From a phage, in sequence record PZ445430.1: a stretch of 64,000 bases of DNA. The stretch is one strand, 5' to 3'. The notes below the pieces were generated by a model. The model searched no databases and was not told where the DNA came from. It was given only the letters and a program-made list of their open reading frames with translations. Made by a program: the position numbers and the translations under genes. Shown here piece after piece: positions 19,708 to 64,000 of the stretch (positions are counted from its first letter, which is position 1; every line of letters starts with the position of its first letter).

Positions 19708-19730
19708 TAGTTACACGTAATCTTCGAACC

Positions 19731-19768
19731 AAGCCCGCGTTTCCTCCGAGAGCGCGGGCTTTTCTGTA
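19731..19768 (+). terminator. rho-independent terminator
   Basis: Hairpin aagcccgcg..cgcgggctt plus T-run. Confidence 0.6.
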
Positions 19769-19919
19769 TTTAAGGCAAAAGAAAAGCCCATAAGTTATTC
19801 AACTAAGGTCTTTAGTATTTAATTCTTTAATTCTTTAGAATCATATACTATTATTGTAGCAACAACGTGCTACCACTAAATGCCTTGAGATTTTTCCACT
19901 AAAAAGTTTAAAAATTCGA

Positions 19920-19948
19920 TTGCTTGAACGCTAAATTCTCTGTATAAT
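19920..19948 (+). promoter_or_regulatory. early promoter (TTGCTT-17-TATAAT)
   Basis: -35 at 19920-19925, -10 at 19943-19948. Confidence 0.6.
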
Positions 19949-19978
19949 ATATTTATAAATTTGAGAGAGGAATCAAAT

Positions 19979-21034: not shown

Positions 21035-21035
21035 T

Positions 21036-21713
21036 ATGACTAACTATCTTGTAAATGACTTTAAAAACTGGAAACCTTTGGAATATCTGTGGCTGTTTAT
21101 AGCAGTCGCCTTTATTAGTTTAGCAAACTATAATGGTACAGCTCTAGATTGGGCTACTGCAATAACCAATGTGGTTTGTGTTATTCTGGTTGCAAAAGGA
21201 CGTGTTTCCAACTATATTTGGGGCTTAGTGGGTGTTCTTACATATGGTATTACAGCTTTAAACGCAGATCTTTATGGTAACGCTGCACTAAACCTGCTAT
21301 ACTACGTTCCTATGCAGTTTTATGGAATGTACTTATGGCATAAAAATAAGCCAAGTAATCTGCCAGATGTTCCAACTAAGTTTCTGACTAAAGCCCAAGC
21401 TCTGCTGACTCTAGGGATTCTAGCAGTAGCCACGTTAGGGTATGGTAGTTTCTTAGCTACTACAGCTGATCCATTCCCAATGCTCGATGCATTTACTGCG
21501 GTTGGTAGTGTGATCGCTATGTGGCTTATGGTTAAGCAGTATGCCGAGCAGTGGCTGATCTGGATTGCTATTAACATTGGTACTGTGTACATTTGGCTTG
21601 TAACTGCTCAATCTACAGGTGCATCTTATGCAATCCTAGCAATGTGGCTAGTATTCTTAGGTAACTCTATTATGGGAGCCTATAAAGGATACTTTGTACG
21701 CGTTAACAAATAA
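21036..21713 (+). CDS. pnuC: PnuC-like nicotinamide riboside transporter
   Basis: About 226 aa polytopic membrane protein coupled to nadR-like gene. Confidence 0.65.
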   Translation: MTNYLVNDFKNWKPLEYLWLFIAVAFISLANYNGTALDWATAITNVVCVILVAKGRVSNYIWGLVGVLTYGITALNADLYGNAALNLLYYVPMQFYGMYLWHKNKPSNLPDVPTKFLTKAQALLTLGILAVATLGYGSFLATTADPFPMLDAFTAVGSVIAMWLMVKQYAEQWLIWIAINIGTVYIWLVTAQSTGASYAILAMWLVFLGNSIMGAYKGYFVRVNK

Positions 21714-21722
21714 AGTAGTTAT

Positions 21723-21745
21723 AGCCCTCGCTTAGAGGGCTATTA
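21723..21745 (+). terminator. rho-independent terminator
   Basis: Hairpin agccctc-gctta-gagggct then T-rich. Confidence 0.5.
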
Positions 21746-21760
21746 TACAGAAATTTTCAC

Positions 21761-21789
21761 TTGCTTAATATAGAAAATTTCTGTATAAT
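21761..21789 (+). promoter_or_regulatory. early promoter (TTGCTT-17-TATAAT)
   Basis: -35 at 21761-21766, -10 at 21784-21789. Confidence 0.6.
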
Positions 21790-21819
21790 ATATTTATAAA
21801 TTCGAGAGAGGAATCAAAC

Positions 21820-22116
21820 ATGAAACGCATTGTACTTGCATTGACTCTAGTATCTACTTCTGTATTTGCTGCTCCGCAACAGGAACTTTGTCAAGTTCAG
21901 GTTTGTAATAAGCTAGAACGATTTACTCTAAACATTTGGTCCCATATTAAAGATAATATGGGTGAACAGTGTTTTGATATTGTTCTGCCAAAAGAACAGG
22001 CTATTCCTGGTGCTGTTCTTAGCTCAGAATCACGTTGGTGGCAGGGTTCTTCTATCAATCCAACTAAGAAGTCAGTGACACGTATCAAACAAGTATATCA
22101 GTGCAAGGTTCAGTAA
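21820..22116 (+). CDS. secreted protein
   Basis: Signal peptide MKRIVLALTLVSTSVFAAP. Confidence 0.5.
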   Translation: MKRIVLALTLVSTSVFAAPQQELCQVQVCNKLERFTLNIWSHIKDNMGEQCFDIVLPKEQAIPGAVLSSESRWWQGSSINPTKKSVTRIKQVYQCKVQ

Positions 22117-22124
22117 AATTTCAC

Positions 22125-22153
22125 TTGCTTAATGTCGAAATTTTCTGTATAAT
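22125..22153 (+). promoter_or_regulatory. early promoter (TTGCTT-17-TATAAT) ahead of tRNA genes
   Basis: -35 at 22125-22130, -10 at 22148-22153. Confidence 0.6.
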
Positions 22154-22167
22154 ATATTCATAAATTC

Positions 22168-22261
22168 GGAAGATTAACCCTAATGGTAAGGGAGCTGTTT
22201 GCTAAACAGCCAGTAGCTGTGGAGACACGGTGTGCCAGTTCGAATCTGGCATCTTCCTCCA
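22168..22261 (+). tRNA. tRNA-Ser(GCT)
   Basis: Acceptor ggaagat/atcttcc; anticodon arm gctgt-TTGCTAA-acagc; long variable arm; CCA encoded. Confidence 0.75.
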
Positions 22262-22266
22262 GATTT

Positions 22267-22344
22267 GGTTCTCAAGCTCATTTGGTATGAGCCGTCGCCT
22301 CATAAGCGAAAGGTAGGTAGGTTCGAATCCTCCGGGAGCCACCA
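22267..22344 (+). tRNA. tRNA(CAT), Met or Ile-lysidine
   Basis: T-loop TTCGAAT; anticodon loop CTCATAA; CCA encoded. Confidence 0.65.
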
Positions 22345-22361
22345 ATTAATTAGGAGACTAT

Positions 22362-22547
22362 ATGTCACGCTTTCGAGAAATTGCTCAAGAGCTAGAAGAA
22401 TGTATGTGTACTGAATGTTGGGGTTCTGGCACTCAAAATGATGCTGAACCTGGGGACATTTTCTATAACGAATGGGAATGTCCTACCTGTAAAGGTTCTG
22501 GCATTAACCCTAATTATGCAATTTCTTTTGATATTGAGCGAGGCTAA
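22362..22547 (+). CDS. small Cys-rich (zinc-ribbon-like) protein
   Basis: AGGAG RBS; CxxC..CxxC pattern. Confidence 0.5.
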   Translation: MSRFREIAQELEECMCTECWGSGTQNDAEPGDIFYNEWECPTCKGSGINPNYAISFDIERG

Positions 22548-22548
22548 A

Positions 22549-22887
22549 ATGGATATTTTTACAACTCCGGCAGTCAACCTTTTAGGTGTAGGTCTGTTCC
22601 AAGCTACCATCTATCGTATTGATGATACCACAGATGTAGTAACGTTCATTGTACCAGAGTTCTTCCTAGAAAAGTTCTTTGAAGAGTTTGAGCAGTTTCG
22701 TGAAGAACACAATGCTCATTCCGATATGGAAGATCTAGCAGCTATGTTCCCTGCGGTTTACGGCTATATCTTTGAAGGTAATGGCCTAGATCTTAATAAA
22801 TCTGAACTCGTTGAACTTAACTGGGGCATCAATTTTGAAGTTGGCTCTCCATTCCCTCGATATTTCCAGGGTTTAGAGATTCGCTAA
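22549..22887 (+). CDS. hypothetical protein
   Basis: Internal ATG of track ORF 22438..22887 with GAGG RBS. Confidence 0.5.
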   Translation: MDIFTTPAVNLLGVGLFQATIYRIDDTTDVVTFIVPEFFLEKFFEEFEQFREEHNAHSDMEDLAAMFPAVYGYIFEGNGLDLNKSELVELNWGINFEVGSPFPRYFQGLEIR

Positions 22888-22895
22888 GATTACAT

Positions 22896-22972
22896 GGGGG
22901 TGTAATCGAATTGGCATAGGTACTGGACTTAAAATTCAGGTTTTGTGGGTTCGAATCCCACCACCCCTACCA
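22896..22972 (+). tRNA. tRNA-Leu(TAA), short type-I-like
   Basis: Acceptor gggggtg/cacccct; anticodon arm ctgga-CTTAAAA-ttcag; CCA encoded. Confidence 0.55.
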
Positions 22973-22987
22973 AATTAAGGAAATAAA

Positions 22988-23131
22988 ATGAAAGCTATTA
23001 AGAAAGCACTGCGTAAATTTATGTACTGTCGTTTTCATAGCATCAAGGCTTCAACTAATGGTACGACTTACGATCGCTATGATCCTAAGTTTGGCTTACA
23101 CTCTAAACAACTGGAGAAAACAAATGGCTAA
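22988..23131 (+). CDS. small hypothetical protein (47 aa)
   Basis: AAGGAAA RBS. Confidence 0.3.
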   Translation: MKAIKKALRKFMYCRFHSIKASTNGTTYDRYDPKFGLHSKQLEKTNG

Positions 23132-23330
23132 TCCTGAAATTACGGCACAACGCTTTATGCTGAAAGGAATTATTGCTGAAGCAGGCATGACAGAAGAAGT
23201 TGCAGATTTTCAAAAGCAATTCCTCAATATTCTCACTCAAGCCAAAGAGCTAGGAGAGAAAGAACATGGCGCGGCTATTATGGCAATCACATTGGTTGGG
23301 CTTGATCTGGCTGAAGAATCAGGAGTTTAA
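23124..23330 (+). CDS. hypothetical protein
   Basis: Internal ATG of track ORF 23058..23330 with GGAGAAAA RBS. Confidence 0.45.
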   Translation: MANPEITAQRFMLKGIIAEAGMTEEVADFQKQFLNILTQAKELGEKEHGAAIMAITLVGLDLAEESGV

Positions 23331-23360
23331 CTCCTCCAAGCAGAAATTTTAAAAATGTAC

Positions 23361-23390
23361 TTGCTTTTTACTTAAGATTTCTGCTATAAT
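23361..23390 (+). promoter_or_regulatory. early promoter (TTGCTT-18-TATAAT)
   Basis: -35 at 23361-23366, -10 at 23385-23390. Confidence 0.55.
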
Positions 23391-23419
23391 AGTTATATAA
23401 GTTGATGAGAGGAATCAGA

Positions 23420-23692
23420 ATGTTAAAACGTTTTGCAGCAACTGGTATTGAAAGCTCAGTATGTAAATCCTGGGGTGGTTGGGAAGGTGAGATCGAGTGG
23501 CTTTATTTCTACAATGTAGAACTTCTTCCAGAGATCAAAGCTCAATGTATTGAGGCTGGTATGGCTCCTGATGCTACGGCTGATGTTGAAATCAGCATGA
23601 ATAAGCTAGAGGGTCGAGTAGTCACTGTTACTGATGAAGGTGAAGAGGTATTCGAACTTCCATTCACTTTGAAAGTCACTCCTGGCTTCTAG
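23420..23692 (+). CDS. hypothetical protein
   Basis: ORF with GAGAGG RBS. Confidence 0.5.
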   Translation: MLKRFAATGIESSVCKSWGGWEGEIEWLYFYNVELLPEIKAQCIEAGMAPDATADVEISMNKLEGRVVTVTDEGEEVFELPFTLKVTPGF

Positions 23693-23731
23693 TAACTGAT
23701 ACAGCACTGAGCAAGTTCTTTAAAATCTTAC

Positions 23732-23760
23732 TTGCTCAGTCCTTCAAAACTTGATATAAT
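23732..23760 (+). promoter_or_regulatory. early promoter (TTGCTC-17-TATAAT) ahead of tRNA block
   Basis: -35 at 23732-23737, -10 at 23755-23760. Confidence 0.55.
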
Positions 23761-23885
23761 AGTTATCTAATTTGGAAAACATATCTGAATGAGAAGTAAC
23801 TAAGCGAGTTGCTTTTAGGGGTAAAGTCAGGATAGCCTGAAATATTCCACCTTGAGTTTAACCGACTTACTTTTCATTCAAATAT

Positions 23886-23966
23886 GGGGGATTGGCTCAG
23901 TGGCGACGGCGCCTGGCTGTAGACCGGGTATATCACGCGGAGGTTCGAGTCCTCCATCTCCCACCA
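23886..23966 (+). tRNA. tRNA-Tyr(GTA)
   Basis: Acceptor gggggat/atctccc; anticodon arm cctgg-CTGTAGA-ccggg; T-loop TTCGAGT; CCA encoded. Confidence 0.7.
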
Positions 23967-23974
23967 AAATTAAT

Positions 23975-24049
23975 GCACCTATCGTCTAATGGTTAGGACA
24001 TCAGGATTTCAATCTGAGAATCGGAGTTCAATTCTCCGTGGGTGTGCCA
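23975..24049 (+). tRNA. tRNA-Glu(TTC)
   Basis: Anticodon loop ATTTCAA; T-loop TTCAATT; CCA encoded. Confidence 0.65.
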
Positions 24050-24058
24050 ATTAATAAT

Positions 24059-24129
24059 TGGGGTACGCATAGGTTGCTAGTGGGCCTCCAAAACCCATGA
24101 AAAGGTTTCGAATACCTTTACCCCTGCCA
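24059..24129 (+). tRNA. tRNA-Trp(CCA)
   Basis: Anticodon loop CTCCAAA; short with mismatched first acceptor pair; CCA encoded. Confidence 0.5.
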
Positions 24130-24135
24130 ATATTT

Positions 24136-24210
24136 GCACCTTTAGCTGAGATGGATTAGCGCTTGCCTGAAGAGCTTGAGAGGTTCGTTCAATTCGAACA
24201 GGGTGCACCA
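24136..24210 (+). tRNA. tRNA-Phe(GAA)
   Basis: D-stem gctg/tagc; anticodon loop CTGAAGA with two U-U mismatches in stem; CCA encoded. Confidence 0.55.
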
Positions 24211-24227
24211 ATTTGAAGGAGATGCTG

Positions 24228-24500
24228 ATGCATCCTGAAAACTTCTTTATATACTGTACTAGTCTTTTGCTTAAACGCCGGATTAATAAAGTATATCACT
24301 ACAGAGCTAGTCAACAGCCTTATGTTTATGATTCTAGTGGAGATCATATTCCACTTGAGCAACTAGGGACTGATTATATGGTTTTGAAGCACTTTAATGA
24401 GGCGAAGATCTCTAGCGTTCATAACCGACAAAACTCTAAAACGTGGTGGCATAAGAAGCGTAAGAAAGGCATCAAATTTCTTAAAAATGTAGTTGCTTAA
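24228..24500 (+). CDS. hypothetical basic protein
   Basis: ATG 6 nt after AAGGAG; 3' end overlaps -35 of next promoter. Confidence 0.4.
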   Translation: MHPENFFIYCTSLLLKRRINKVYHYRASQQPYVYDSSGDHIPLEQLGTDYMVLKHFNEAKISSVHNRQNSKTWWHKKRKKGIKFLKNVVA

Positions 24501-24521
24501 ATCCTTAAAGTTCTGTATAAT
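24493..24521 (+). promoter_or_regulatory. early promoter (TTGCTT-17-TATAAT)
   Basis: -35 at 24493-24498, -10 at 24516-24521. Confidence 0.55.
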
Positions 24522-24549
24522 TATTACATAAATTGAACTGGAGAACTAG

Positions 24550-24738
24550 ATGAAAGCACCTAAACCGAAATTAGTTAAGTTCGACTGCTGTGATACTGAA
24601 ATCTTATTTACTAAGTTTGGTGAATTTAAGATGTGTGAATGTGGAACATGTGGTTACGATCATGGTGATGGATATTATTGCAGAACCCTAGGGCCTTCTG
24701 AACTAATCCACTTCTCATGGCCGGAAAGTAAAGAATAA
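24550..24738 (+). CDS. small Cys-rich protein
   Basis: GGAG RBS; multiple Cys pairs. Confidence 0.5.
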   Translation: MKAPKPKLVKFDCCDTEILFTKFGEFKMCECGTCGYDHGDGYYCRTLGPSELIHFSWPESKE

Positions 24739-24740
24739 TA

Positions 24741-24816
24741 CGACCGTTGGCTGAATGGCTTAGGCGGAGGCCTGCAAAACCTCCTTATGTGAGTTCGAAT
24801 CTCATGCGGTCGTCCA
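24741..24816 (+). tRNA. tRNA-Cys(GCA)
   Basis: Acceptor cgaccgt/gcggtcg; anticodon loop CTGCAAA; CCA encoded. Confidence 0.65.
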
Positions 24817-24968
24817 ATTTGCTGAAAGAATTGTTAAATCAATTCAGGCACGCGTAGGAACACTGCCTCAGTAATTGAAAGATGAGGCACGGTTTGGAGA
24901 GGTATGCCGCTACACGCTACGGTGCTAACTCCGTCTAGGTGAAAATCCTAGTCAGCAATATAAATTTA

Positions 24969-25054
24969 GGGTCGTTGGCTGAACGGTTTAAGCGCCGGAC
25001 TGTTAATCCGTATCCGCAAGGATAAAGTAGGTTCAACTCCTACACGGCCCGCCA
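24969..25054 (+). tRNA. tRNA-Asn(GTT) candidate with extra 15-nt arm
   Basis: Acceptor gggtcgt/acggccc; anticodon loop CTGTTAA; extra hairpin atcc-gcaa-ggat; CCA encoded. Confidence 0.5.
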
Positions 25055-25081
25055 ATTTCACTAACAACTGAGGAAATAGAT

Positions 25082-25267
25082 ATGACAACTCGTGCAATTG
25101 CTCTACTAGAAGCTGATCGTGATAATCTGATTAATAATATTAAGGTTCGTGGTAATATTATTAAGGCTCTGAAAGCTGAACTTCTTGAAGAACTTCAAGG
25201 TCAAGTAGAGCGTCGTGAAGCTCTAAAAGAGGTTGAGGAAGCTATCGAAAAACTCAAAACTGAGTAA
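25082..25267 (+). CDS. hypothetical coiled-coil protein
   Basis: ORF with GAGGAAA RBS. Confidence 0.5.
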   Translation: MTTRAIALLEADRDNLINNIKVRGNIIKALKAELLEELQGQVERREALKEVEEAIEKLKTE

Positions 25268-25275
25268 ACAAATTA

Positions 25276-25352
25276 TGCGATCGGGGCTGGCTTGGTAATG
25301 GTACTCCCCTGTCACGGGAGAGAATGTGGGTTCGAATCCCATCGGTCGCGCC
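25276..25352 (+). tRNA. tRNA-Asp(GTC)
   Basis: Acceptor gcgatcg/cggtcgc; anticodon arm ctccc-CTGTCAC-gggag; CCA encoded. Confidence 0.75.
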
Positions 25353-25429
25353 AATTTTTGCAGGACGCTGGTATAGATAACCACCGCGTGGGAAGTGTCT
25401 ATATTTAGAGCACTGCAAAACATAATAAT

Positions 25430-25505
25430 ACATCCATAGCTCAATGGTTAGAGCTACCGCCTCTTAAGCGGAGGGTTCTAGGTTCAAGTCCTAGTGGGTG
25501 TACCA
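25430..25505 (+). tRNA. tRNA-Lys(CTT)
   Basis: D-stem gctc/gagc; anticodon loop CTCTTAA; T-loop TTCAAGT; CCA encoded. Confidence 0.6.
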
Positions 25506-25587
25506 AACATCAGAGCAGCGTGATGTACTGCAAAGACCCAAAGTCCGGGGTGGACTTCTTGATTCAAAGGAGCAGGCATTAATTATC

Positions 25588-25709
25588 ATTCTAGCGTGGT
25601 GGAGAGGGGACACCAGCTTGCCGAGGGTAGAAGCTCGTTCGATTCGAGTGAAAGAATGGTTCTCGTAAATCCGCACAAGTGATAGCAGGTTCAAGTCCTG
25701 CCTAGATTG
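25588..25709 (+). ncRNA. degenerate tRNA-like element (about 120 nt)
   Basis: T-arm gcagg-TTCAAGT-cctgc and second T-loop-like ctcg-TTCGATT-cgag; pairable acceptor 122 nt apart; no CCA. Confidence 0.25.
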
Positions 25710-25718
25710 ACTTATTAT

Positions 25719-25792
25719 GCGTTCGTAGTTAAAAGGTATAATTTTTGGTTGCCAACCAGAAGTTGAGGGTTCGATTCCCTCCGACCGCACCA
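25719..25792 (+). tRNA. tRNA-Gly(GCC)
   Basis: Anticodon arm tttgg-TTGCCAA-ccaga; T-loop TTCGATT; CCA encoded. Confidence 0.65.
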
Positions 25793-26040
25793 AATTTAGG
25801 TTTCTGCTTCCTAGAGAACTGACTCCTAGATAAACAAGGCGATGAGTTTCCGGCCGGTTCTAGTCGCTGAAAATCCTCCCGACCAGGTAGGTGTAAGTAA
25901 ACGAAAGTTTACTTATTAAGTAAGTCCGACACATCGGCGGGTGTGTTCTAGTACTTAAAGAAGGTCTCGCAAACTTTCTCGCTAGCATGAGTTCATAGCT
26001 CGGTGACTTACCTAATAAGTAAATTTATTAAAAAATGTAG

Positions 26041-26069
26041 TTGCTATTTAGCTTAATTCTCTGTATAAT
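26041..26069 (+). promoter_or_regulatory. early promoter (TTGCTA-17-TATAAT)
   Basis: -35 at 26041-26046, -10 at 26064-26069. Confidence 0.6.
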
Positions 26070-26101
26070 ATATTTTATAAAGTGAGTTAACAAAGAATAT
26101 T

Positions 26102-26179
26102 CTCCGTGTAGCTCAGTTTGGCCAGAGCGTTTCGTTTGGGGCGATAGGGTCGGGGGTTCAAATCCTCCCACGGAGACCA
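26102..26179 (+). tRNA. tRNA-Pro(TGG)
   Basis: Acceptor ctccgtg/cacggag; anticodon loop TTTGGGG; CCA encoded. Confidence 0.65.
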
Positions 26180-26185
26180 AACAAT

Positions 26186-26263
26186 TGCGGGTTAGATCTC
26201 TGGTAGAGATCGCTAGTCTCATAAGCTAGAAAGAGGTAGGTTCGATTCCTACACCCGCTTCCA
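26186..26263 (+). tRNA. tRNA(CAT), Met or Ile-lysidine
   Basis: D-stem gatc/gatc; anticodon arm ctagt-CTCATAA-gctag; CCA encoded. Confidence 0.65.
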
Positions 26264-26284
26264 ATTTAATAGAAGGATTTCGAA

Positions 26285-26449
26285 ATGAAATTATTTCGTT
26301 TAAAAGTAAGTGATCTACGTTCTAGCAAAGATCGTAAGAAGTATCCACTAGCTCACTATGGTAAAGATGAAAACGAAGTGATGGCGGAATTTGGTATTAA
26401 TCATCCTTACTTGAAAGTCTACTCTATTAAAGAAGTATACATGTATTAA
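26285..26449 (+). CDS. small hypothetical protein (54 aa)
   Basis: AGAAGGA RBS; lies between tRNA genes. Confidence 0.35.
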   Translation: MKLFRLKVSDLRSSKDRKKYPLAHYGKDENEVMAEFGINHPYLKVYSIKEVYMY

Positions 26450-26451
26450 AT

Positions 26452-26529
26452 TGACCGTTAACTCAACTGGATAAGAGTACCGAGCTTTTACCTCGTAGGT
26501 TCTGGGTTCGAATCCCAGACGGTCAACCA
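26452..26529 (+). tRNA. tRNA-Lys(TTT)
   Basis: Acceptor tgaccgt/acggtca; D-stem actc/gagt; anticodon loop CTTTTAC; CCA encoded. Confidence 0.65.
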
Positions 26530-26546
26530 ATTTAAAGGAATTTGTT

Positions 26547-26864
26547 ATGAATATTAACAAAGTTCTAGAAACAATATCAGAAATGTCTGGTAGAGCTGGA
26601 AAACGCTTTACTGAACTATGCATTAAAAATCAAAAAGTACCAGAACATCAATGTCATTATTGTCGAGACTGTGAACAATACCATGAAATGTGTATGGTTG
26701 AAGATTGGGTCTGGGATCAGATAAGAAAAGAGCAACCCAAAGATATTGTTCTATGTTTTACTTGTATGGAACGACGTTTAGGACGTAAAATTACGCTCAA
26801 AGATCTTAAACATGTTCCCTGTAACGCTCCTTACTTCATTGGCTTTAGAATGGAGAGATTTTAA
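26547..26864 (+). CDS. Cys-rich hypothetical protein
   Basis: AAAGGAA RBS; CHYCRDC and CFTC motifs. Confidence 0.5.
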   Translation: MNINKVLETISEMSGRAGKRFTELCIKNQKVPEHQCHYCRDCEQYHEMCMVEDWVWDQIRKEQPKDIVLCFTCMERRLGRKITLKDLKHVPCNAPYFIGFRMERF

Positions 26865-26997
26865 TGACTATCTGGTTTTATTTAATGAAGCAGAAAATAA
26901 GAGATTCCTATGTATTCTCTGCTGACTTTACAATAGGTATGTTTATAGCAGGTTTCTGTGAATTTGTAGTTGAAGCCTACATCATAGGAAGTCTTTT

Positions 26998-27071
26998 GCT
27001 CGGTTAGTTTAATGGGAGAACCCCGTCTTTACACGGCGGTTGCGATAGTTCGATTCTATCACCGAGTACCA
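26998..27071 (+). tRNA. tRNA-Val(TAC)
   Basis: Anticodon arm ccgtc-TTTACAC-ggcgg; T-loop TTCGATT; CCA encoded. Confidence 0.7.
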
Positions 27072-27096
27072 ATTAACTCAAAATAAGGAATTGCAA

Positions 27097-27450
27097 ATGC
27101 AATTATCAAGCAAGGTTCAAGGCTATTTCGGGCATGTAACAATGGAGTTCGCTATCTCTAAAGGTTGGGACTTCGAACAAGATCTAGCTGAATTCTACAA
27201 AGATATTGATCTGAATGTACCGTACATAGGACTCTCTACTGGTCAAGAGATCACAGAAGGCGATGTGTTCAAGGCAAGTCAAGGTGAGGTAACACCTAGT
27301 TTTGCCGAGTTCTGGTTAGGAATTACTCTGAAAGATGATGCACCGGATGGTGGTGTGGTTATGCAGAGTATGCACTCTGGAAGCTCTGATTACCTTTTCG
27401 TTAGTGACGTTAAGGAAATACAAGAAATCTGCAAAAATGTACTTGCTTGA
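27097..27450 (+). CDS. hypothetical protein
   Basis: AAGGAA RBS; 3' end overlaps -35 of next promoter. Confidence 0.5.
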   Translation: MQLSSKVQGYFGHVTMEFAISKGWDFEQDLAEFYKDIDLNVPYIGLSTGQEITEGDVFKASQGEVTPSFAEFWLGITLKDDAPDGGVVMQSMHSGSSDYLFVSDVKEIQEICKNVLA

Positions 27451-27471
27451 TGCTTAATTTCTTGTTATAAT
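27443..27471 (+). promoter_or_regulatory. early promoter (TTGCTT-17-TATAAT)
   Basis: -35 at 27443-27448, -10 at 27466-27471. Confidence 0.55.
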
Positions 27472-27734
27472 ATTTATATAAATCGATGAGGAGAAATCCT
27501 CATCAAAGTTCACTAAGGTATTAGCTCGACCTAGGACTGGCTGCCAACAAGCACAGTTGCAATTAGACCCCTAATGGCGGGGGGATACTTTGCAATAAGT
27601 TCTAGATTAGTCCACTAGATTCAGCGGCAACTGAATAGTGTATCGGGTTTGTGAAGAGCGGTTATCCTCTACTGGCTAATGTCTGAGGGTAATACGCACA
27701 CCGAGCTAATAGCCTTAGTAAACTTAAAGATTTT

Positions 27735-27808
27735 GGGGATATAGTTTAATGGTAGAACATCTGCCTTGCACGCAGAAGACGAGGGTTCAACTCCCTCTTT
27801 CTCCACCA
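27735..27808 (+). tRNA. tRNA-Ala(TGC)
   Basis: Anticodon arm tctgc-CTTGCAC-gcaga; T-loop TTCAACT; CCA encoded. Confidence 0.7.
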
Positions 27809-27813
27809 AATTC

Positions 27814-27889
27814 GGGGTCATAGGTTATTTGGTTAAACTTACTGCCTTGCAAGCAGTGGAACTCAGTTCAATTCTGAGTGACTCCACCA
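27814..27889 (+). tRNA. tRNA-Ala(TGC), second copy
   Basis: Anticodon arm actgc-CTTGCAA-gcagt; T-loop TTCAATT; CCA encoded. Confidence 0.6.
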
Positions 27890-27908
27890 AACAAATTAAG
27901 GAAATAAT

Positions 27909-28127
27909 ATGGTATTCTTAGTAGCCTCTGTAGTTCTTGCAGCTTTAGCACTAGCTATCTATTTTAGAACTGTTAAAGATTTAGCTAAAGAAAAGAAAAC
28001 TTTCTTTACTGATTATTCTTGGGGCGCTCCATATACTGTCCGCTTTATCAGCTTAGAAGCTATGCTGATAATGGTATTCAGTGGCGTAGGTTCCATTGTT
28101 GCGGGATTATTATTTATTTCTAACTAA
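27909..28127 (+). CDS. small membrane protein
   Basis: AAGGAAA RBS; two hydrophobic helices. Confidence 0.5.
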   Translation: MVFLVASVVLAALALAIYFRTVKDLAKEKKTFFTDYSWGAPYTVRFISLEAMLIMVFSGVGSIVAGLLFISN

Positions 28128-28134
28128 ATAAAAT

Positions 28135-28215
28135 GGGGATGTGGCGAAATTGGCAGACGCGCTAGATTTAGGTTCTAGTCTCCGGGTGTGGGTTCGAGTC
28201 CCTCCATCCCTACCA
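28135..28215 (+). tRNA. tRNA-Leu(TAG)
   Basis: Anticodon arm ctaga-TTTAGGT-tctag; 9-nt variable region; CCA encoded. Confidence 0.65.
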
Positions 28216-28389
28216 AACATTGGATTAACTCATGATGAAAACTCCTATAACTGATATCTGGTTAGCTGTTAATACGTTAACTAAAGAGTATGTGTTTATA
28301 GAGTATGGTCAGAGGTATGACCAAAAGATGTATAATCTCATACTTCCAGTATCCGCTAATGAAGTTTATGATTTAATCCTGAGATCTAC

Positions 28390-28482
28390 GGAAGAGCAAA
28401 TCGACTTGGTGACGAAAACCACTTGGAAAGTGGCTGACTTGTGAAAGCAGGCTTGAGAGTTCGAATCTCTCTTCTTCCGCCA
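28390..28482 (+). tRNA. tRNA-Ser(GGA)
   Basis: Acceptor ggaagag/ttcttcc; anticodon loop TTGGAAA; long variable arm; T-loop TTCGAAT; CCA encoded. Confidence 0.55.
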
Positions 28483-28496
28483 AACAAAATTTATAG

Positions 28497-28591
28497 GGTA
28501 GGTCAATCCAACGGCTGGCGCTGGACTCCGACTTGAAATCGGTTGATCGTAGTGATACGGTGTAAGGGTTCGATCCCCTTACCTACCCCCA
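28497..28591 (+). tRNA. tRNA-Ser(TGA)
   Basis: Acceptor ggtaggt/acctacc; anticodon loop CTTGAAA; long variable arm; CCA encoded. Confidence 0.6.
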
Positions 28592-28596
28592 AATCT

Positions 28597-28728
28597 TGAA
28601 GTATGCCGGAATCGGTAGACGGGGCTTCCTAAAGGGCGTAAGAGGAACATCCACTCCTCATAAGATACCCGAAAACGAGGCTGAGATAAATGGTCTATCT
28701 CGTGAAGGTTCAAGTCCTTCTGCTTCTT
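28597..28728 (+). ncRNA. tRNA-like element with Leu-type D-arm (about 130 nt)
   Basis: D-arm ccgg-AATCGGTAGAC-gggg, T-arm gaagg-TTCAAGT-ccttc, pairable acceptor; extra 45 nt internally; no CCA. Confidence 0.25.
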
Positions 28729-28906
28729 GATATTCAATGGCTCAAAGAGTAACGGTGCACCTTTCTAGAGAATTTTCTGGGCGAGAATCCAGAAGTAATC
28801 AACTAGTTGTTAGTGTGATGAGTTTCGGAGAGCCGCCACAATTGAAGTCTTTAGAATGGGTATCGCCCTTTAGCCCCTCCGAAAGGGATAACTAGAGATT
28901 TCAATT

Positions 28907-28983
28907 GTGGCTATATCATAATTGGTTAATGATCCTGATTGTGAATCAGGCCTATGTGGATTCGAATTCCACTAGCCACCCCA
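28907..28983 (+). tRNA. tRNA-His(GTG)
   Basis: Acceptor gtggcta/tagccac; anticodon arm cctga-TTGTGAA-tcagg; CCA encoded. Confidence 0.75.
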
Positions 28984-28989
28984 AATATT

Positions 28990-29064
28990 GCGTCCTTATT
29001 TCAATGGAAAGAATGTAAAGCTACGAACTTTACGATCGGGGTTCGATTCCCTGAGGATGCACCA
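28990..29064 (+). tRNA. tRNA-Arg(ACG)
   Basis: Anticodon arm taaag-CTACGAA-cttta; T-loop TTCGATT; CCA encoded. Confidence 0.75.
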
Positions 29065-29088
29065 ATTAACTTATATAGGAAATAAAAT

Positions 29089-29289
29089 ATGGCTGATTTC
29101 TGCAAAGAATGCTCTATCGATATGTGGGGCAAAGATACTGGTGATCTTTCTGGTCTGATTACAGAAGCCGAAGTTAAAGAAGGCTATGGTGCTGTTGTAA
29201 TCTGTGAAGGTTGTGGTATTATTCGTGTTGATCATAATGGTAAACGTCTAGAAGAACCAGATCCAATTGCCACGGTTCCTGTAGAATAA
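29089..29289 (+). CDS. small Cys-rich protein
   Basis: AGGAAA RBS; CKEC..CEGC. Confidence 0.5.
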   Translation: MADFCKECSIDMWGKDTGDLSGLITEAEVKEGYGAVVICEGCGIIRVDHNGKRLEEPDPIATVPVE

Positions 29290-29296
29290 AAATTAT

Positions 29297-29372
29297 TGGG
29301 ATGTAGATCAATTGGCAGATCGTCGGCCTCTGACTCCGAAGGTTCCACGTTCGATCCGTGGCATCCCAGCCA
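29297..29372 (+). tRNA. tRNA-Gln(CTG)
   Basis: D-stem gatc/gatc; anticodon loop CTCTGAC with C-U mismatch closing the stem; CCA encoded. Confidence 0.65.
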
Positions 29373-29378
29373 AATACT

Positions 29379-29454
29379 TGGAGAGTAGTGTAACGGTTAG
29401 CACAACGGCCTTTGACTCCGTTAATGGTAGGTTCGATTCCTCCTTCTCCAGCCA
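29379..29454 (+). tRNA. tRNA-Gln(TTG)
   Basis: Anticodon loop CTTTGAC with same C-U mismatch; CCA encoded. Confidence 0.65.
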
Positions 29455-29460
29455 ATTTAT

Positions 29461-29535
29461 GCGTGATTAGTTCAGTGGCTAGAATAACTGGCTTCCAACC
29501 AGTAGACACGAGTTCGACTCTCGTATCCCGCACCA
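29461..29535 (+). tRNA. tRNA-Gly(TCC)
   Basis: Anticodon arm actgg-CTTCCAA-ccagt; T-loop TTCGACT; CCA encoded. Confidence 0.7.
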
Positions 29536-29550
29536 ATTTAAGGAAACGTT

Positions 29551-29757
29551 ATGGACGTTTTTGAGTTTCGTAATAAAAACCCTAATAGGCGAGTTTTAAT
29601 TATTGGTGAAACATACCGAGCTTATGAGCAGGAAGACGGTTCGGTTTTATTAAATGATGAAAAGCAAGGCTATAGCTTTCATCCGGAAGAAACATATGAA
29701 GAATTTCGTACTAAGTTTCTTTTACCAGACTGGCTAGCAATAGCTGAGCAAAGATAA
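29551..29757 (+). CDS. hypothetical protein
   Basis: AAGGAAA RBS. Confidence 0.5.
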   Translation: MDVFEFRNKNPNRRVLIIGETYRAYEQEDGSVLLNDEKQGYSFHPEETYEEFRTKFLLPDWLAIAEQR

Positions 29758-29764
29758 CCCGAAG

Positions 29765-29923
29765 ATGGCTGATAATCTAAAGGTAGATAAACGAATGAAG
29801 CACGTTGAGGTTGAGTTGGGTGAAGAACGTTTAAAACTCTCCTTCGAATTCTTACAACAGTTGGCTATGACAGTAATGTCTGATAAGTCTCCTGTATTTG
29901 AAAAAGAAATTCCGTTGAAATAA
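29765..29923 (+). CDS. small hypothetical protein (52 aa)
   Basis: Short ORF, weak RBS. Confidence 0.3.
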   Translation: MADNLKVDKRMKHVEVELGEERLKLSFEFLQQLAMTVMSDKSPVFEKEIPLK

Positions 29924-29933
29924 CGGGTTTATT

Positions 29934-30008
29934 GCTCCTAAAGCATTGCTGGCGATGCAGTTGCCTTGTAAGCATCTGAACCGGGTTCGATTCCTGGTGG
30001 GAGCACCA
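29934..30008 (+). tRNA. tRNA-Thr(TGT)
   Basis: D-stem gcat/atgc; anticodon loop CTTGTAA; T-loop TTCGATT; CCA encoded. Confidence 0.65.
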
Positions 30009-30023
30009 AATTTAAAAATTCAT

Positions 30024-30052
30024 TTGCCTTCTCTCTTATTTCTTGTTATAAT
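30024..30052 (+). promoter_or_regulatory. early promoter (TTGCCT-17-TATAAT)
   Basis: -35 at 30024-30029, -10 at 30047-30052. Confidence 0.55.
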
Positions 30053-30082
30053 ATTTATATAAATTAATGAGAGGGAAACCAA

Positions 30083-30376
30083 ATGAAACGTTATCTTTCT
30101 GTCGTGTTCCAAACGGGTGGTCAACGCTACACTTACGAATTTCCTGAGTCTTGGAAAATAAAAGAAGGTGATCAAGTTGTTGTGCTAACACCTCGTGAAG
30201 GCTTCAAAGTAGTAACGGTTAAACAAGTATTTCCAAAAGATCACGAACCATCTAAGTCTATTCAGTACAAGATGATTCACGGTCTGGTACGAAAAGTACC
30301 TAGAACAGAAGTCGAAGTAGATAAAACTGGTGAAGCTAAATACCAGTATACCTCTTACTTAGACGAGTTGTTATAA
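30083..30376 (+). CDS. hypothetical protein
   Basis: GAGAGGGAAA RBS. Confidence 0.5.
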   Translation: MKRYLSVVFQTGGQRYTYEFPESWKIKEGDQVVVLTPREGFKVVTVKQVFPKDHEPSKSIQYKMIHGLVRKVPRTEVEVDKTGEAKYQYTSYLDELL

Positions 30377-30582
30377 TGAGAATTACTTTCACAGAAAAGA
30401 TTATGGGCAATGGTGTTATGATCATTACCGCATGGGATGGTAATCAGTGGTGTAGTGTTTCAGGTATTAAGCCTGAAGAACAAACACTAGAAAATATCTC
30501 AAAGATTAAGCGAAGAATGGCAGAACGTGCACGACTTCCAGGTGCGCCTAGAAATGGTAAACGTTCTGCAATTAAATGTTAA
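30376..30582 (+). CDS. hypothetical protein
   Basis: Coupled to upstream gene (ATGA overlap). Confidence 0.45.
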   Translation: MRITFTEKIMGNGVMIITAWDGNQWCSVSGIKPEEQTLENISKIKRRMAERARLPGAPRNGKRSAIKC

Positions 30583-30583
30583 T

Positions 30584-30660
30584 GCTTCGGTAGCTTAGCG
30601 ATCTAAAGCACTCGGCTGATAACCGAGAGATCGGGGGTTTAAATCCCTCCCGGAGTACCA
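30584..30660 (+). tRNA. tRNA-Ile(GAT)
   Basis: D-stem gctt/aagc; anticodon arm ctcgg-CTGATAA-ccgag; CCA encoded. Confidence 0.75.
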
Positions 30661-30756
30661 AATTTAGGAAGTAAGACTATGCGTCCAGGAAAGTTTAAAA
30701 AAGCTAATTGGTCTAAAGAGTATAAAGAATACTTACTTAGTCTAGTAAAACATAAT

Positions 30757-30832
30757 AGTTAGTTGGCAGAGAGGTTATGCACCTCCTTCATACGGAGCGA
30801 CTACAGTGGTTCAAATCCACTACTAACTACCA
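30757..30832 (+). tRNA. tRNA(CAT), third copy
   Basis: Acceptor agttagt/actaact; anticodon loop TTCATAC; T-arm agtgg-TTCAAAT-ccact; CCA encoded. Confidence 0.65.
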
Positions 30833-59273: not shown

Positions 59274-60008
59274 ATGAATCAAGTTAAAATGAATATTACC
59301 CGCACTTTCCCGCATATTTCCCGCGTTATGATTTGGGATTTAGACGGGACAATCATTAATTCATTCCATCGTGTAGCGCCTTGCTTTGATGATAACGGGA
59401 ATTTAAATTTAGTTAAGTATTCCCGCGAAGCCTGCAAACACGATTTAATTATGCAGGATTCTTTATTGCCATTGGTTGAATATATGCGCCAATGTATGAA
59501 TGATGCAAATACATTAAATATTATTTGTACCGCGCGCCTAATGTCTAAAAGCGATTATTTTTATTTGCGCAAACAAGGCTTGCGAGGGCGCGGAAATAGT
59601 AATATTCGCGTATTTTCCCGCGATACATTACATAAATACTTTGATGCAAATAAGGTTAGCGAAATATATCACAGCAAAGACGCAGTATATAAAAGCTATT
59701 ACTTTGAACTGTTTAAACAGCTATATCCAAACGCTGATTTTACAATGATTGATGATCATAAAGGTGTATTATCAGCGGCGGCAAGTGCTGGATTTAAAAC
59801 GCTGGATGCTCAAGCCGTTAACGATATCCTATCAATCGGCGTAACATTGATCGGTGAAACCTTTATTGATGAATCGCTTGATGATGATAACGATTATCAA
59901 TTCCTAGCCGATAGATTAAAAATGTGTTGGGAAGGTATGACCGAGGAAGAACGCGCAGAATATAGTTGCAGCCCGCAACAATTCATTGATAAATTAAAAG
60001 TCGCCTAA
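59274..60008 (+). CDS. dmp: HAD-family 5'-deoxyribonucleotidase-like protein
   Basis: 244 aa; HAD motif I MIWDLDGTII. Confidence 0.6.
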   Translation: MNQVKMNITRTFPHISRVMIWDLDGTIINSFHRVAPCFDDNGNLNLVKYSREACKHDLIMQDSLLPLVEYMRQCMNDANTLNIICTARLMSKSDYFYLRKQGLRGRGNSNIRVFSRDTLHKYFDANKVSEIYHSKDAVYKSYYFELFKQLYPNADFTMIDDHKGVLSAAASAGFKTLDAQAVNDILSIGVTLIGETFIDESLDDDNDYQFLADRLKMCWEGMTEEERAEYSCSPQQFIDKLKVA

Positions 60009-60166: not shown

Positions 60167-60382
60167 CTATTTACGGACTGACTGCTTGAGAATGGACTGC
60201 CATAGAAGGTCAGTCTTAACAAGATTATTGATGTACTCAATAGCTTCATCAAATCTCATAAATCCTTCTGGAATTTCTGAAGACTTAGGAAAAACTTGTA
60301 GCATTTCCTGGGTGATGCCCATCTTTTCGAGTTCTTCTTGGGTTATCTCAAACTCCCCGAAAAACTTCCCGAATTCTTTCAT
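60167..60382 (-). CDS. hypothetical protein
   Basis: AGGAGAAG RBS. Confidence 0.45.
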   Translation of the reverse strand: MKEFGKFFGEFEITQEELEKMGITQEMLQVFPKSSEIPEGFMRFDEAIEYINNLVKTDLLWQSILKQSVRK

Positions 60383-60624
60383 GAGCTTCTCCTATCTACA
60401 GGCTTGTCTCCCGATTCTGACATACGAAATCTCCTCCGCGACGCCCGAGATCCATCCGACCACTCCCGCTCAAACTCCGCACGTTTCTCCGCAAACCTCC
60501 GCTCCCTTTCCGAAAGCTCCCGCGATATTCCCGCAACGTATTCACGATGCTTGTTAATCGCCCCGAGTGTTCCGAAGATCCCCGCAAGCACTCCGATAAT
60601 GAAGATAGCTACAAAGCTAAACAT
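60379..60624 (-). CDS. small membrane protein
   Basis: GAGAGGG RBS; N-terminal TM helix; Arg-rich tail. Confidence 0.45.
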   Translation of the reverse strand: MFSFVAIFIIGVLAGIFGTLGAINKHREYVAGISRELSERERRFAEKRAEFEREWSDGSRASRRRFRMSESGDKPVDRRSS

Positions 60625-60811
60625 CTAATTCCCTCTCAAGTTGGTGAATACGTGCCCGGTCATTACGTTGGGAGTCCAGTAACTTATCCATATTAATGTT
60701 TAGTTGGGTGACTTTATCCTCTAGCTTCTGTATACGATTACGATGTGACGTCATGTATCCAACAATCCAGACAATCCATACTACAAGTGTAATAAGTCCT
60801 AACCAATCCAT
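60617..60811 (-). CDS. small membrane protein with coiled coil
   Basis: GGGGAGA RBS; TM helix LITLVVWIVWIVGY. Confidence 0.45.
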   Translation of the reverse strand: MDWLGLITLVVWIVWIVGYMTSHRNRIQKLEDKVTQLNINMDKLLDSQRNDRARIHQLERELDV

Positions 60812-60915
60812 TATTTATCTCCCCGCAGCTTACGTTCAATACGAGCTAAGTGGTTATCTAGAATGCACTGTCCGATAATTACCACAACTAGTAAAGCAAT
60901 AATCACTACTTCCAT
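60811..60915 (-). CDS. small membrane peptide (34 aa)
   Basis: Short hydrophobic ORF coupled on both sides. Confidence 0.3.
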   Translation of the reverse strand: MEVVIIALLVVVIIGQCILDNHLARIERKLRGDK

Positions 60916-60987
60916 TATAACCACCCCGCCATAGCTGCTAACCAAAAGAGTACAAAGATAAAGAATAACACAGTCCCGAATCCGAAA

Positions 60988-61302
60988 CTATTTATCCAAC
61001 TTTCGTACACTTCCCCGCGTCTGTTCTTTCCTCTGTTGTCGTCTGACATCTCTTTGCTTCTCCTGTAGTCCTGGTATTTGGAATATCCTAGCAATTGCAC
61101 GAACCATTATGACCGTCCCGATAAGATCCATTACTTCATCGAAGCCGGATTCTTCTAGTAAGAAGGATGTTCCCATCACGTCTTCCATTGTATCTTCTAT
61201 GACGTCTTGAATGATTTCGTTAATCGCATCATGTATTGCTTTAGTCCTGAGATCTATTTCAAAGTTAACAGGTTCCTGAAAGGACTTTTCTTCATCTTGC
61301 AT
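60988..61302 (-). CDS. acidic hypothetical protein
   Basis: 104 aa ORF. Confidence 0.4.
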   Translation of the reverse strand: MQDEEKSFQEPVNFEIDLRTKAIHDAINEIIQDVIEDTMEDVMGTSFLLEESGFDEVMDLIGTVIMVRAIARIFQIPGLQEKQRDVRRQQRKEQTRGSVRKLDK

Positions 61303-61376
61303 TGTGTTTGCTACCTGTACCTCATCCCAGAAATAAAAATTTTTGTTTACTTCGAGATCTTTTTACTTTATACTAA

Positions 61377-61643
61377 TTACAAGTGACCAGATTGTTCTAG
61401 TTTAAATTTGCAATCGCCATATTTGAGATCAAACTGTGACAAATCCCACCACCCAAACTTAGTGCGTAACTGAGTTTTAGGGAATCGGTAGCCCACAGTA
61501 CGTGCTTCTCGAATATCTAAAGCATAGTGTTCTTCACCAACATGACCATAAGACTTCACGTATGCCTTACAGAATGGCTCGGGAGCCGGTACACAACCTG
61601 TCAACACTACTGCTGCAACTACGATGGCTAATAACTTTTTCAT
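61377..61643 (-). CDS. llp: lipoprotein, Llp-like receptor-blocking candidate
   Basis: Signal peptide with lipobox AAVVLTGC; divergent from adjacent tail-protein gene. Confidence 0.55.
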   Translation of the reverse strand: MKKLLAIVVAAVVLTGCVPAPEPFCKAYVKSYGHVGEEHYALDIREARTVGYRFPKTQLRTKFGWWDLSQFDLKYGDCKFKLEQSGHL

Positions 61644-61726
61644 AATCGTTCCTCTGTTTAATTTATAAATATATTATAGCAAAATAGAGGGATCTAAGCA
61701 AATACATTTTTAAAGAAGGAGATTGT

Positions 61727-63508
61727 ATGAGTTTTTTCGCAGGAAAATTTAGTGATGGTAAAACTGTATTATCTCTAAACGCTGCTAATGGTGGTGATAT
61801 AAATCAGCACTACTCTCCAAATACTAATAGTATCTTCCACTCAGATATGCCCTTCGTCCTAGTTGATGGGACTTATGAGGCTGCCCTAGGTGATGCAGGC
61901 AATGGGTATTTTGTTACTCAGATGCCTTGGGATATTATAAACATTAAATCCAATGATCCTGGTAGAGTTATACTAACTGCTATTGAGATAAACGGTACTC
62001 ATCGTGGCTTTCTGAATGGTACACAATCTCAGGTTGGCCAATTCTTAACATTCTTCGAAGATCAACCACGTGCTGGTGCTGAACTGGCTATAACATCTGC
62101 TTTTGCAATCGGTGATAGTTTAGCTCACGGTACTTATATATATAATGGTGGTCTTGGTCATGAGGAATCTATTGCTAGGCAAGGAACTGGTGGTACTTTA
62201 CTACAATCTTCCGGTTTCCAGATCTTTAGACCTGGTGGTGTTTCCGCAGGTGAAGCTATTTCCAGAGCCTGGGGATTAATGGGCTTTCCAACGGGTGTAT
62301 CTACAGTTCCTATAGAGGGTGGTAATGCAGACTATTGGGAGCCTAACTGGCAAGCGCCTATCGGGTCTGCTGGTAGAGGTCATGATTGGTTTTACGTTTG
62401 TAGTTCCAATATTCGTGGCTTTGCCGGTAAAAAAGGTGTACTACCAGATAACGTAAACGTTCTTTACCAATCTCCTGCATATCCAGAAAAAATATATGTT
62501 TGTAGAGGTTCTACTTCTAATATGGCTGCTCAGTCAGCTAGAAAGGTATATGTGCAAGACTGGTATAATGTTACACCTACTAAAGTTATTTGGTACGTGT
62601 TAAATCTACGTTATTCTAACGGTAGTATGGGGATCTCTGGTAACCCATTTACTGGTTCAGATATCTTGATATCTCCCTCTAACTTTACTATTAAAGGTGT
62701 TAGCTTACCAAATACAGGCTATAAATTTATTAACCAGAATGCTTTCGGAAACTTAGGCTATCGCCCTGATATGGAGTATGTTGGTAATAACGCTGCGTAT
62801 ACCGGAGTTTTTGGTGATAATACTGCACGATGTGAATTTATCGGCTCTAGTAATGGCGGGTTGTGGTCTCCTGTTAACTATGGAGGTGCTGCTTCTCAAA
62901 TTAGCCTTTATAAATTTGGGGTGGGTAAACAATGGTACGTAGATACTAATACCAATTCAATTGGTAATGAACATGGCCCTGTGTGGAGTCCTAGTACTGT
63001 ACCTCTCAGGCTATTCCCAGGCAACGTTGCAAGTACTTACGTAGGGGACGATATAACTCCATCCTACCCTGGTGCTGGTGACTTCTACACACCTTTGGCT
63101 ACAGTTTGGTTGGGATTACCAAATGCTCACTCTACTGTTATATTAACCACTGAAGTTATTATGGGTAACCTTAATACTGCTGGTATGCCTGTACGTACTT
63201 ATGGGGGTAGTGCTTGGCAGGTACAAGGTAGACGTCAACAAAGTTATACAGCTGGTGATGGTGTATTTCATCAGATTCTTACTCTGCCACCTGGCTATCT
63301 AGTACCATATCACAGTACAACTTCATATAGCTATACCCAAACGTGGGCTAGTAGACCTGATGAGATGGCTTTTCGTAGAAATGGGTATATTTATACAGTA
63401 AAAAACCTTGGTAATGGTAACGTTGAGTTAGGCGTTATTATCCATGCTGCCGAAGCAGCTGCTATCTTCTTACCAAGACTACGTGTAACAGTTCAACGCC
63501 TAACCTAA
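61727..63508 (+). CDS. receptor-binding tail protein candidate
   Basis: 593 aa, Gly/Asn/Ser/Thr/Tyr-rich; AAGGAG RBS; divergent from lipoprotein gene. Confidence 0.5.
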
Positions 63509-63518
63509 AGGAGGATAT

Positions 63519-64000
63519 ATGGCAAATGATGTATTAGTTCCTGATCTCATGTCTCCCGAAGGCATGGATGTTATTGAAGCCTATTTACAGTGTGGTAGTG
63601 ATGTTCCTGCCGCTGCTCGTAGTCTTGGGATGTCCGAGATTGCATTCCGTGATATAATGAATCGTGGGGAAGTTAAAAACTATCTTAACGATATCTTTAT
63701 GGAAAGCGGCTTCCGTAATCGCGACCGTTTGTTTGGGGTTCTTGATGAAGTTATCAAGCGCAAGTTGGAAGAACTCGAAGAAACTGGCATGGGTTCTGAC
63801 CAGGATATCATGGATATTCTCTGGAAGGCGCACAAGATGAAGATGGAAGAAATGAAAATGATGGTAGAACTGGAGAAAGTGAAGGCAGCAGCCCGTACTC
63901 CAGCTAATCAGACTAACATTCAGAATAATATTATTGCTGGAAGTGGTGACGAAAACTATATGAATCTTATTACCGCTCTAGCAGGAGGAGGTAAGAGATA
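63519..64000 (+). CDS. partial CDS, terminase small subunit-like (HTH plus coiled coil)
   Basis: AAGGAGG RBS; ORF open to window end; HTH-like [16 protein letters not shown]; assignment tentative. Confidence 0.35.

Follow-up and report, generated by a model that had tools for sequence, protein, structure and literature searches.

The region at positions 61377 to 63508 of the 64,000-nt stretch of phage DNA analyzed here (the window) is, with high confidence, the host-recognition module of the T5-like Epseptimavirus SuperGirl (Bas29) in a BtuB-specific allelic form, in which a receptor-binding protein (RBP) would engage the vitamin B12 transporter BtuB and a divergently encoded lipoprotein, Llp, would silence it in the way set out below. 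The module is already known: the phage has been sequenced, annotated, and phenotyped and is part of a public reference collection. A preliminary description of this DNA had interpreted the two genes as a receptor-blocking lipoprotein paired with an RBP, and this interpretation is borne out by 100% identity to SuperGirl with matching annotations and by synteny with T5, BF23, SPC35, DT571/2, and EPS7.

The ORF listing of the window contains an 88-aa ORF on the minus strand (61377-61643) and a 593-aa ORF on the plus strand (61727-63508), arranged divergently, exactly as originally described in position, length, and strand. The features of the locus are as follows.

61377 to 61643, minus strand: llp, 88-aa receptor-blocking (superinfection exclusion/lytic conversion) lipoprotein precursor, identified by the lipobox, PHROG 1119, identity to EPS7 and BF23, and bas29_0208.
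61644 to 61726, strand not applicable: divergent intergenic control region of 83 bp, containing the putative llp promoter along with a ribosome-binding site for each gene.
61673 to 61701, minus strand: putative sigma-70-type llp promoter, with hexamers and spacing identical to the BF23 annotation.
61727 to 63508, plus strand: receptor-binding tail-tip protein of the pb5/Oad/Hrs family, 593 aa, assigned to the BtuB-type allele, identified by PHROG 4815, the pb5 structures, and bas29_0209.
63521 to 64000, plus strand: ORF at the end of the window, with GGAGG followed by ATG at 63521, running off the window end.

Shine-Dalgarno motifs precede both start codons (AAGGAG for the RBP gene and GAGGA for llp), and in related records the gene directly 3' of the RBP gene is annotated as terminase small subunit. 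Megablast showed that positions 61300-63600 and 39001-64000 are 100% identical to Escherichia phage SuperGirl (MZ501105/NC_105116). The match ends at the end of the linear SuperGirl record and the window goes on into the start of that record (terS), indicating that the window spans the arbitrary ends of the record. According to its GenBank record, SuperGirl is Bas29 of the BASEL collection, an Epseptimavirus (Demerecviridae, Markadamsvirinae) for which Escherichia coli K-12 served as the isolation host; its two corresponding genes are annotated as “superinfection exclusion protein” (bas29_0208) and “receptor-binding tail tip protein” (bas29_0209).

The gene order llp (minus strand) followed by RBP, terS, and terL (plus strand) is exactly shared with T5 (llp/oad), BF23 (llp/hrs), SPC35, DT571/2, and EPS7. 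On a larger scale, the window contains dmp (59274-60008), small minus-strand ORFs with hydrophobic segments (60379-61302), llp, RBP, and terS, and T5 shows the same order in reverse orientation, namely, dmp (in the right terminal repeat), T5p158-155, llp, oad, sciB/terS, and terL; SPC35 and DT571/2 likewise carry the dmp-to-terS order of the window. Because the two products match PHROG 4815 (E = 5e-283) and PHROG 1119 (E = 1e-23), respectively, and several hundred phage records have the same arrangement, neither ORF is a chance ORF.

Several other features of the window were observed. The small ORFs between dmp and llp (60379-61302, minus strand) are five short overlapping ORFs of 81, 64, 44, 61, and 104 aa, most with hydrophobic segments; their counterparts by synteny in T5 are T5p155-158, and no function is known for them. 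A 71-aa ORF at 60167-60382 (minus strand) carries the SuperGirl annotation “putative homing endonuclease”; its length is well short of that usual for homing endonucleases, and the equivalent stretch of T5, SPC35, and DT571/2 lacks it. At 18450-30832 (plus strand), there is the usual T5-like tRNA block, with 27 tRNA genes that include three tRNA-Met, two tRNA-Gln, and two adjacent tRNA-Ala(tgc). The llp/RBP module itself (61300-63600) is 99.5% identical to that of Salmonella phage SB13 and 96-97% identical to those of PSa2 and JNwz02; over the 25-kb stretch 39001-64000, the best genome besides SuperGirl is only ~94% identical. These values hint that the module may be more conserved than its surroundings or exchanged independently of them.

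The match between the 593-aa protein and PHROG 4815, “receptor binding tail protein,” extends from residue 1 to residue 593, and a phmmer search against the PDB recovered the T5 pb5 chains 8A8C_B and 8B14_B (E = 9e-47) with two aligned blocks, 1-187 and 274-593. This full-length homology to pb5 and Hrs places the protein in the pb5/Oad/Hrs family of Markadamsvirinae. The preliminary description had called it Gly/Asn/Ser-rich, which is apt only in a mild sense (G, 12.6%; S, 7.9%; T, 7.3%; N, 7.1%). A tblastn search of 50,697 phage records detected homologs in 534, with identity descending from EPS7 (98.2%) through SPC35 (83%) and a large group at ~68-69% to DT571/2 (63.5%); below a gap follow T5 pb5, the S124/Shivani type, and T5-like phages of Klebsiella (26-29%). 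Global alignment gave 83.3% identity to SPC35, 76.1% to BF23 Hrs, 65.4% to DT571/2, and 35.6% to T5 pb5, the values being percentages of aligned columns. Comparison with pb5, Hrs, and the DT57C-type RBPs thus identifies the 593-aa protein as a pb5 homolog of the Hrs/EPS7 type, not of the T5 type.

Conservation along the protein is uneven. Residues 1-40 and 281-360 are the best conserved with pb5 (the first 40 residues are 58% identical to T5 pb5), and variability among the BtuB-type RBPs peaks at residues 161-200 and 241-280. The conserved parts would serve tail attachment and the core fold, and the variable parts would include putative receptor-contact loops.

Annotation of this family in public records is patchy. 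The EPS7 record (NC_010583, 1453-3231) has no CDS over the RBP; the tblastn match there is broken into three pieces, and the straight frame contains 10 stops. The frame breaks are probably frameshift sequencing errors in an old record, and it is because of these frameshifts that the RBP lacks annotation in the type phage of the genus. In SE8 (MK972716), the RBP is mislabeled “receptor-blocking protein,” and in SLAM_phiST45, “terminase small subunit.” In the case of several T5-like genomes, the public record names Campylobacter or Listeria as the host, apparently in error.

In the BASEL collection, clusters of RBP sequences separate the binders of BtuB, FepA, and FhuA, and such clustering is an accepted predictor of the receptor in this subfamily (PMC8594841; also bioRxiv 10.64898/2026.04.02.716166). 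By this measure, the RBP belongs to the BtuB clade, with 98% identity to EPS7, 83% to SPC35, 76% to BF23 Hrs, and 65% to DT571/2, compared with only 28-29% to the T5 (FhuA) and S124/Shivani types. Nearly all members of the group discussed in PMC8594841 target BtuB, with EPS7 named as a demonstrated case, and in the same study, Bas30 lost plating on a btuB deletion mutant and regained it upon complementation. BF23, DT57C, SPC35, and phiR2-01 are described as BtuB phages, and BF23 and DT57C depend on btuB (literature including PMC4728585); the receptor of EPS7 was reported as BtuB by Hong et al. (2008), as cited in papers including PMC8594841. A genome-wide screen published as a preprint in 2026 found 23 BtuB-binding Demerecviridae with RBPs ~30% identical to pb5 (bioRxiv 10.64898/2026.04.02.716166), a value that agrees with the 29-35% measured here and so supports the BtuB assignment. 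Bas29 itself is listed as a BtuB user (PMC11619597), and a 2026 preprint, in which the BASEL receptor annotations were checked by cross-streak on receptor deletion mutants, names “Bas29 (BtuB).”

Taken from RBP homology and the published tests of Bas29, the assigned receptor of SuperGirl/Bas29 is BtuB, the vitamin B12 transporter. The suggestion in the preliminary description that the receptor may differ from FhuA was therefore well placed, given an RBP that falls in the BtuB clade at ~30% identity to pb5 and a phage reported to target BtuB. Its further statement that specificity could not be read from the sequence does not hold, since homology assigns BtuB and the literature agrees for Bas29.

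The 88-aa ORF begins with MKKLLAIVVAAVVLTGC (also given as MKKLLAIVVAAVVLTGCVPAPEPFCK...). In the signal peptide of its product, a basic n-region and a hydrophobic core precede an L-T-G-C lipobox with Cys17 (MKKLLAIVVAAVVLTG, then C); the lipobox cysteine is as expected for a BF23-type Llp. The Pfam lipoprotein attachment model LPAM_1 scored 18.6 bits (E = 0.0025), under the cut-off of 20. Under the Lol-sorting rule, Val rather than Asp at position +2 predicts outer-membrane localization, and Val occupies this position in Llp. The mature protein has 72 aa, with cysteines at mature positions 1, 9, and 62 that are invariant in 11 of the 11 aligned homologs.

The Llp precursor matches PHROG 1119, “Cor superinfection exclusion protein” (E = 1e-23), and the mature part alone does so as well (E = 2e-14). 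It is 98.9% identical (87/88 residues) to the EPS7 protein and 68% identical to BF23 Llp over 88/88 residues; in the latter comparison, the C-terminal half (~55-85) is nearly identical and the mature N-terminal half has diverged. In an AF2 model (pLDDT 85), mature Llp adopts five strands and a C-terminal helix, and the only significant structural match of this model in a Foldseek search was the predicted receptor-blocking protein of phiR2-01 (E = 4.5e-10, TM 0.94). With both sequence and fold similarity to characterized members, the membership of Llp in the BF23-type Llp family is established.

Homologs of Llp were detected by tblastn in 398 phage records and belong to two allele classes. The class with at least 95% identity consists of 192 records (EPS7 and many Salmonella epseptimaviruses), and the class with 60-80% identity consists of 204 records (BF23, SPC35, DT571/2, AKFV33, and others). 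The two classes differ mainly in the mature N-terminal half (residues 18-54), with residues 55-85 being nearly invariant. Because SPC35-like RBPs, which are 83% identical to the RBP of the window, pair with a BF23-type Llp, allelic divergence in the RBP is not strictly coupled to that in Llp.

Comparison with characterized systems places the module more closely. EPS7, the type phage of Epseptimavirus, carries essentially the same alleles in identical gene order, with 95.7% identity at the DNA level; EPS7 differs by a small number of substitutions and by an additional Ala in its signal peptide. The hrs/llp locus of BF23 (DQ097178; Mondigler et al. 2006) has the same divergent layout, the same llp promoter hexamers, BtuB as the receptor, an 88-aa Llp, and a nearly identical C-terminal half of Llp, and differs in the sequence of the RBP (76% identity) and of Llp (68%), in the latter mostly within the mature N-terminal half. 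The oad (pb5)/llp locus of T5, for which structures are available (FhuA-pb5, 8A8C and 8B14; FhuA-Llp crystal structure, van den Berg et al. 2022), occupies the same position, between the small ORFs on the terminal-repeat side and terS, with a divergent layout and full-length homology of the RBP; however, its receptor is FhuA rather than BtuB, its RBP is only ~29-35% identical, and its Llp is 19.5% identical with no direct profile or fold match. The Cor lipoproteins of T1, phi80, and N15-like phages are also small outer-membrane lipoproteins that inactivate a TonB-dependent receptor, and it is their family profile, PHROG 1119, that Llp matches; in contrast to the module described here, with BtuB as its target in a T5-like genome, Cor acts on FhuA and is encoded 3' of gpJ-type tail genes in small siphoviruses (PMC8594841, PMC9586334).

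The 83-bp region between the two genes aligns with the intergenic regions of BF23, SPC35, and DT571/2. Alignment to the BF23 signals delineated a putative promoter on the llp strand, with a -35 hexamer TTGCTT (61701-61696), a 17-nt spacer, and a -10 hexamer TATAAT (61678-61673). The hexamers and their spacing are identical to the llp -35/-10 annotated in BF23 (DQ097178) and are conserved in SPC35 and DT571/2; at the equivalent place in T5, promoters are annotated on both strands. A generic consensus scan of the intergenic region yielded no sigma-70 site and missed this promoter because the -35 hexamer matches the consensus at only 3 of 6 positions, so that the probable assignment is founded on identity to the BF23 annotation. 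Early expression has been reported for T5 llp, in the title of Decker et al. (1994) cited in PMC4728585, and a promoter of host type is compatible with it.

Under the mechanism that we propose, the 593-aa RBP would sit at the straight central tail fiber's tip and would bind BtuB, a TonB-dependent transporter of the outer membrane, irreversibly, triggering DNA ejection. Transcribed divergently under the control of a host-type sigma-70 promoter of its own, llp would be expressed early and independently of the late RBP gene. After export and lipidation at Cys17, Llp would reach the outer membrane, in keeping with Val at +2, and there it would inactivate BtuB as a phage receptor. Blocking BtuB would prevent superinfection and spare progeny phages from being wasted on the debris of lysed cells. 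By analogy to T5 Llp and FhuA, Llp would bind the periplasmic face of BtuB together with the plug and jam the transporter, such that the extracellular loops would refuse the RBP.

The blocking step has experimental precedent in the family. BF23 Llp blocks BtuB and prevents superinfection, and cloned DT57C llp, whose product is one residue off that of BF23, caused a drop of more than 100-fold in the plating of BF23 and of phages of the DT57C type (PMC4728585). This drop was seen despite the differences between the Hrs proteins of these phages, which fits action of Llp on the receptor rather than on the RBP. Our literature search found no experiment on the exact EPS7/SuperGirl Llp allele, the mature N-terminal half of which differs from the tested BF23/DT57C allele, nor did it find a BtuB-Llp structure. 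That the EPS7-type Llp allele likewise blocks BtuB, and acts on the periplasmic side in doing so, is our inference.

For T5, the mode of action is known from structure. T5 Llp sits on the periplasmic face of FhuA with the plug bound in a non-native conformation, and extracellular loops EL7 and EL8 fold inward over the pb5 site; such jamming by “reverse allostery” has been proposed to be general for TonB-dependent transporters (PMC9586334). T5 Llp contains a Cys11-Cys58 disulfide, and its AF2-predicted and FhuA-bound conformations differ (PMC9586334). Cys9 and Cys62 of mature Llp occupy positions analogous to Cys11 and Cys58, and a corresponding disulfide may form. Because any homology to T5 Llp comes only from shared membership in PHROG 1119, periplasmic jamming is a mechanism carried over from T5, and action in the manner of T5 Llp is our best mechanistic guess.

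The only competing explanation with some life left in it accepts the module as described but has Llp block BtuB by a different binding mode, such as extracellular occlusion, sequestration, or degradation, as an independent invention and not a homolog of T5 Llp. T5 and BF23 Llp have been called non-homologous in the literature (including PMC4728585), and direct comparisons are in line with this view: in hhalign, the alignment of the Llp family reached an insignificant probability of 0.35% against mature T5 Llp, global identity between Llp and T5 Llp is 19.5%, phmmer recovered no PDB sequence for Llp at E values up to 10, and a Foldseek search of the Llp model against the PDB returned Tudor- or chromo-like small barrels at best (E = 0.12) and did not recover T5 Llp. 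The failure to recover the T5 fold is weak evidence because the predicted and bound conformations of T5 Llp differ. Moreover, mature Llp (E = 2e-14) and mature T5 Llp (E = 1.4e-11) match the same positions 17-78 of PHROG 1119, both proteins combine a lipidated cysteine with one N-proximal and one C-proximal cysteine, and a Lol-sorted lipoprotein normally faces the periplasm. On balance, we consider a different mode of blocking unlikely and retain periplasmic jamming as the preferred explanation.

Two further alternatives concern the identity of the two proteins. The RBP could recognize a receptor besides BtuB (FhuA, FepA, or a new one), as allowed for by the caution of the preliminary description and by the pronounced variability of segments 161-200 and 241-280 among BtuB-type RBPs; with 98% identity to EPS7 and 76-83% to BF23 and SPC35, all of them BtuB phages, against 28-29% to pb5 (FhuA) and the S124/Shivani type, and with Bas29 reported as targeting BtuB (PMC11619597; a 2026 preprint), this possibility is practically excluded. 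It is comparably improbable, to the point of being negligible, that the 88-aa lipoprotein has another identity, for example as an outer-membrane spanin or unrelated moron, and is encoded next to the RBP gene incidentally: Llp is indeed a small phage lipoprotein with only sub-threshold Pfam matches, but the experimentally characterized BF23 llp is exactly syntenic and its product 68% identical, and the gene in the window has its own early-type promoter outside any lysis cassette. A spanin identity in particular was rejected on the strength of this homology and synteny and because the ORFs of the window include no overlapping or adjacent inner-membrane spanin partner.

As a discovery, the BtuB-specific host-recognition module carries little weight; its significance is that it sets the terminal receptor of SuperGirl/Bas29 and, hence, the route to resistance, namely, loss of btuB. 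Assignment of the receptor from the RBP sequence works for this phage. The structural basis of BtuB blocking by this Llp family appears to be unsolved, as no relative was found in the PDB. There is a slim chance that the BtuB-type Llp evolved independently and silences BtuB through another binding mode, with the diverged N-terminal half of the EPS7-type allele tuning action on Salmonella versus E. coli BtuB or cross-exclusion of BtuB phages and E colicins. The Llp/RBP pair constitutes a portable host-range cassette for the engineering of T5-like phages.
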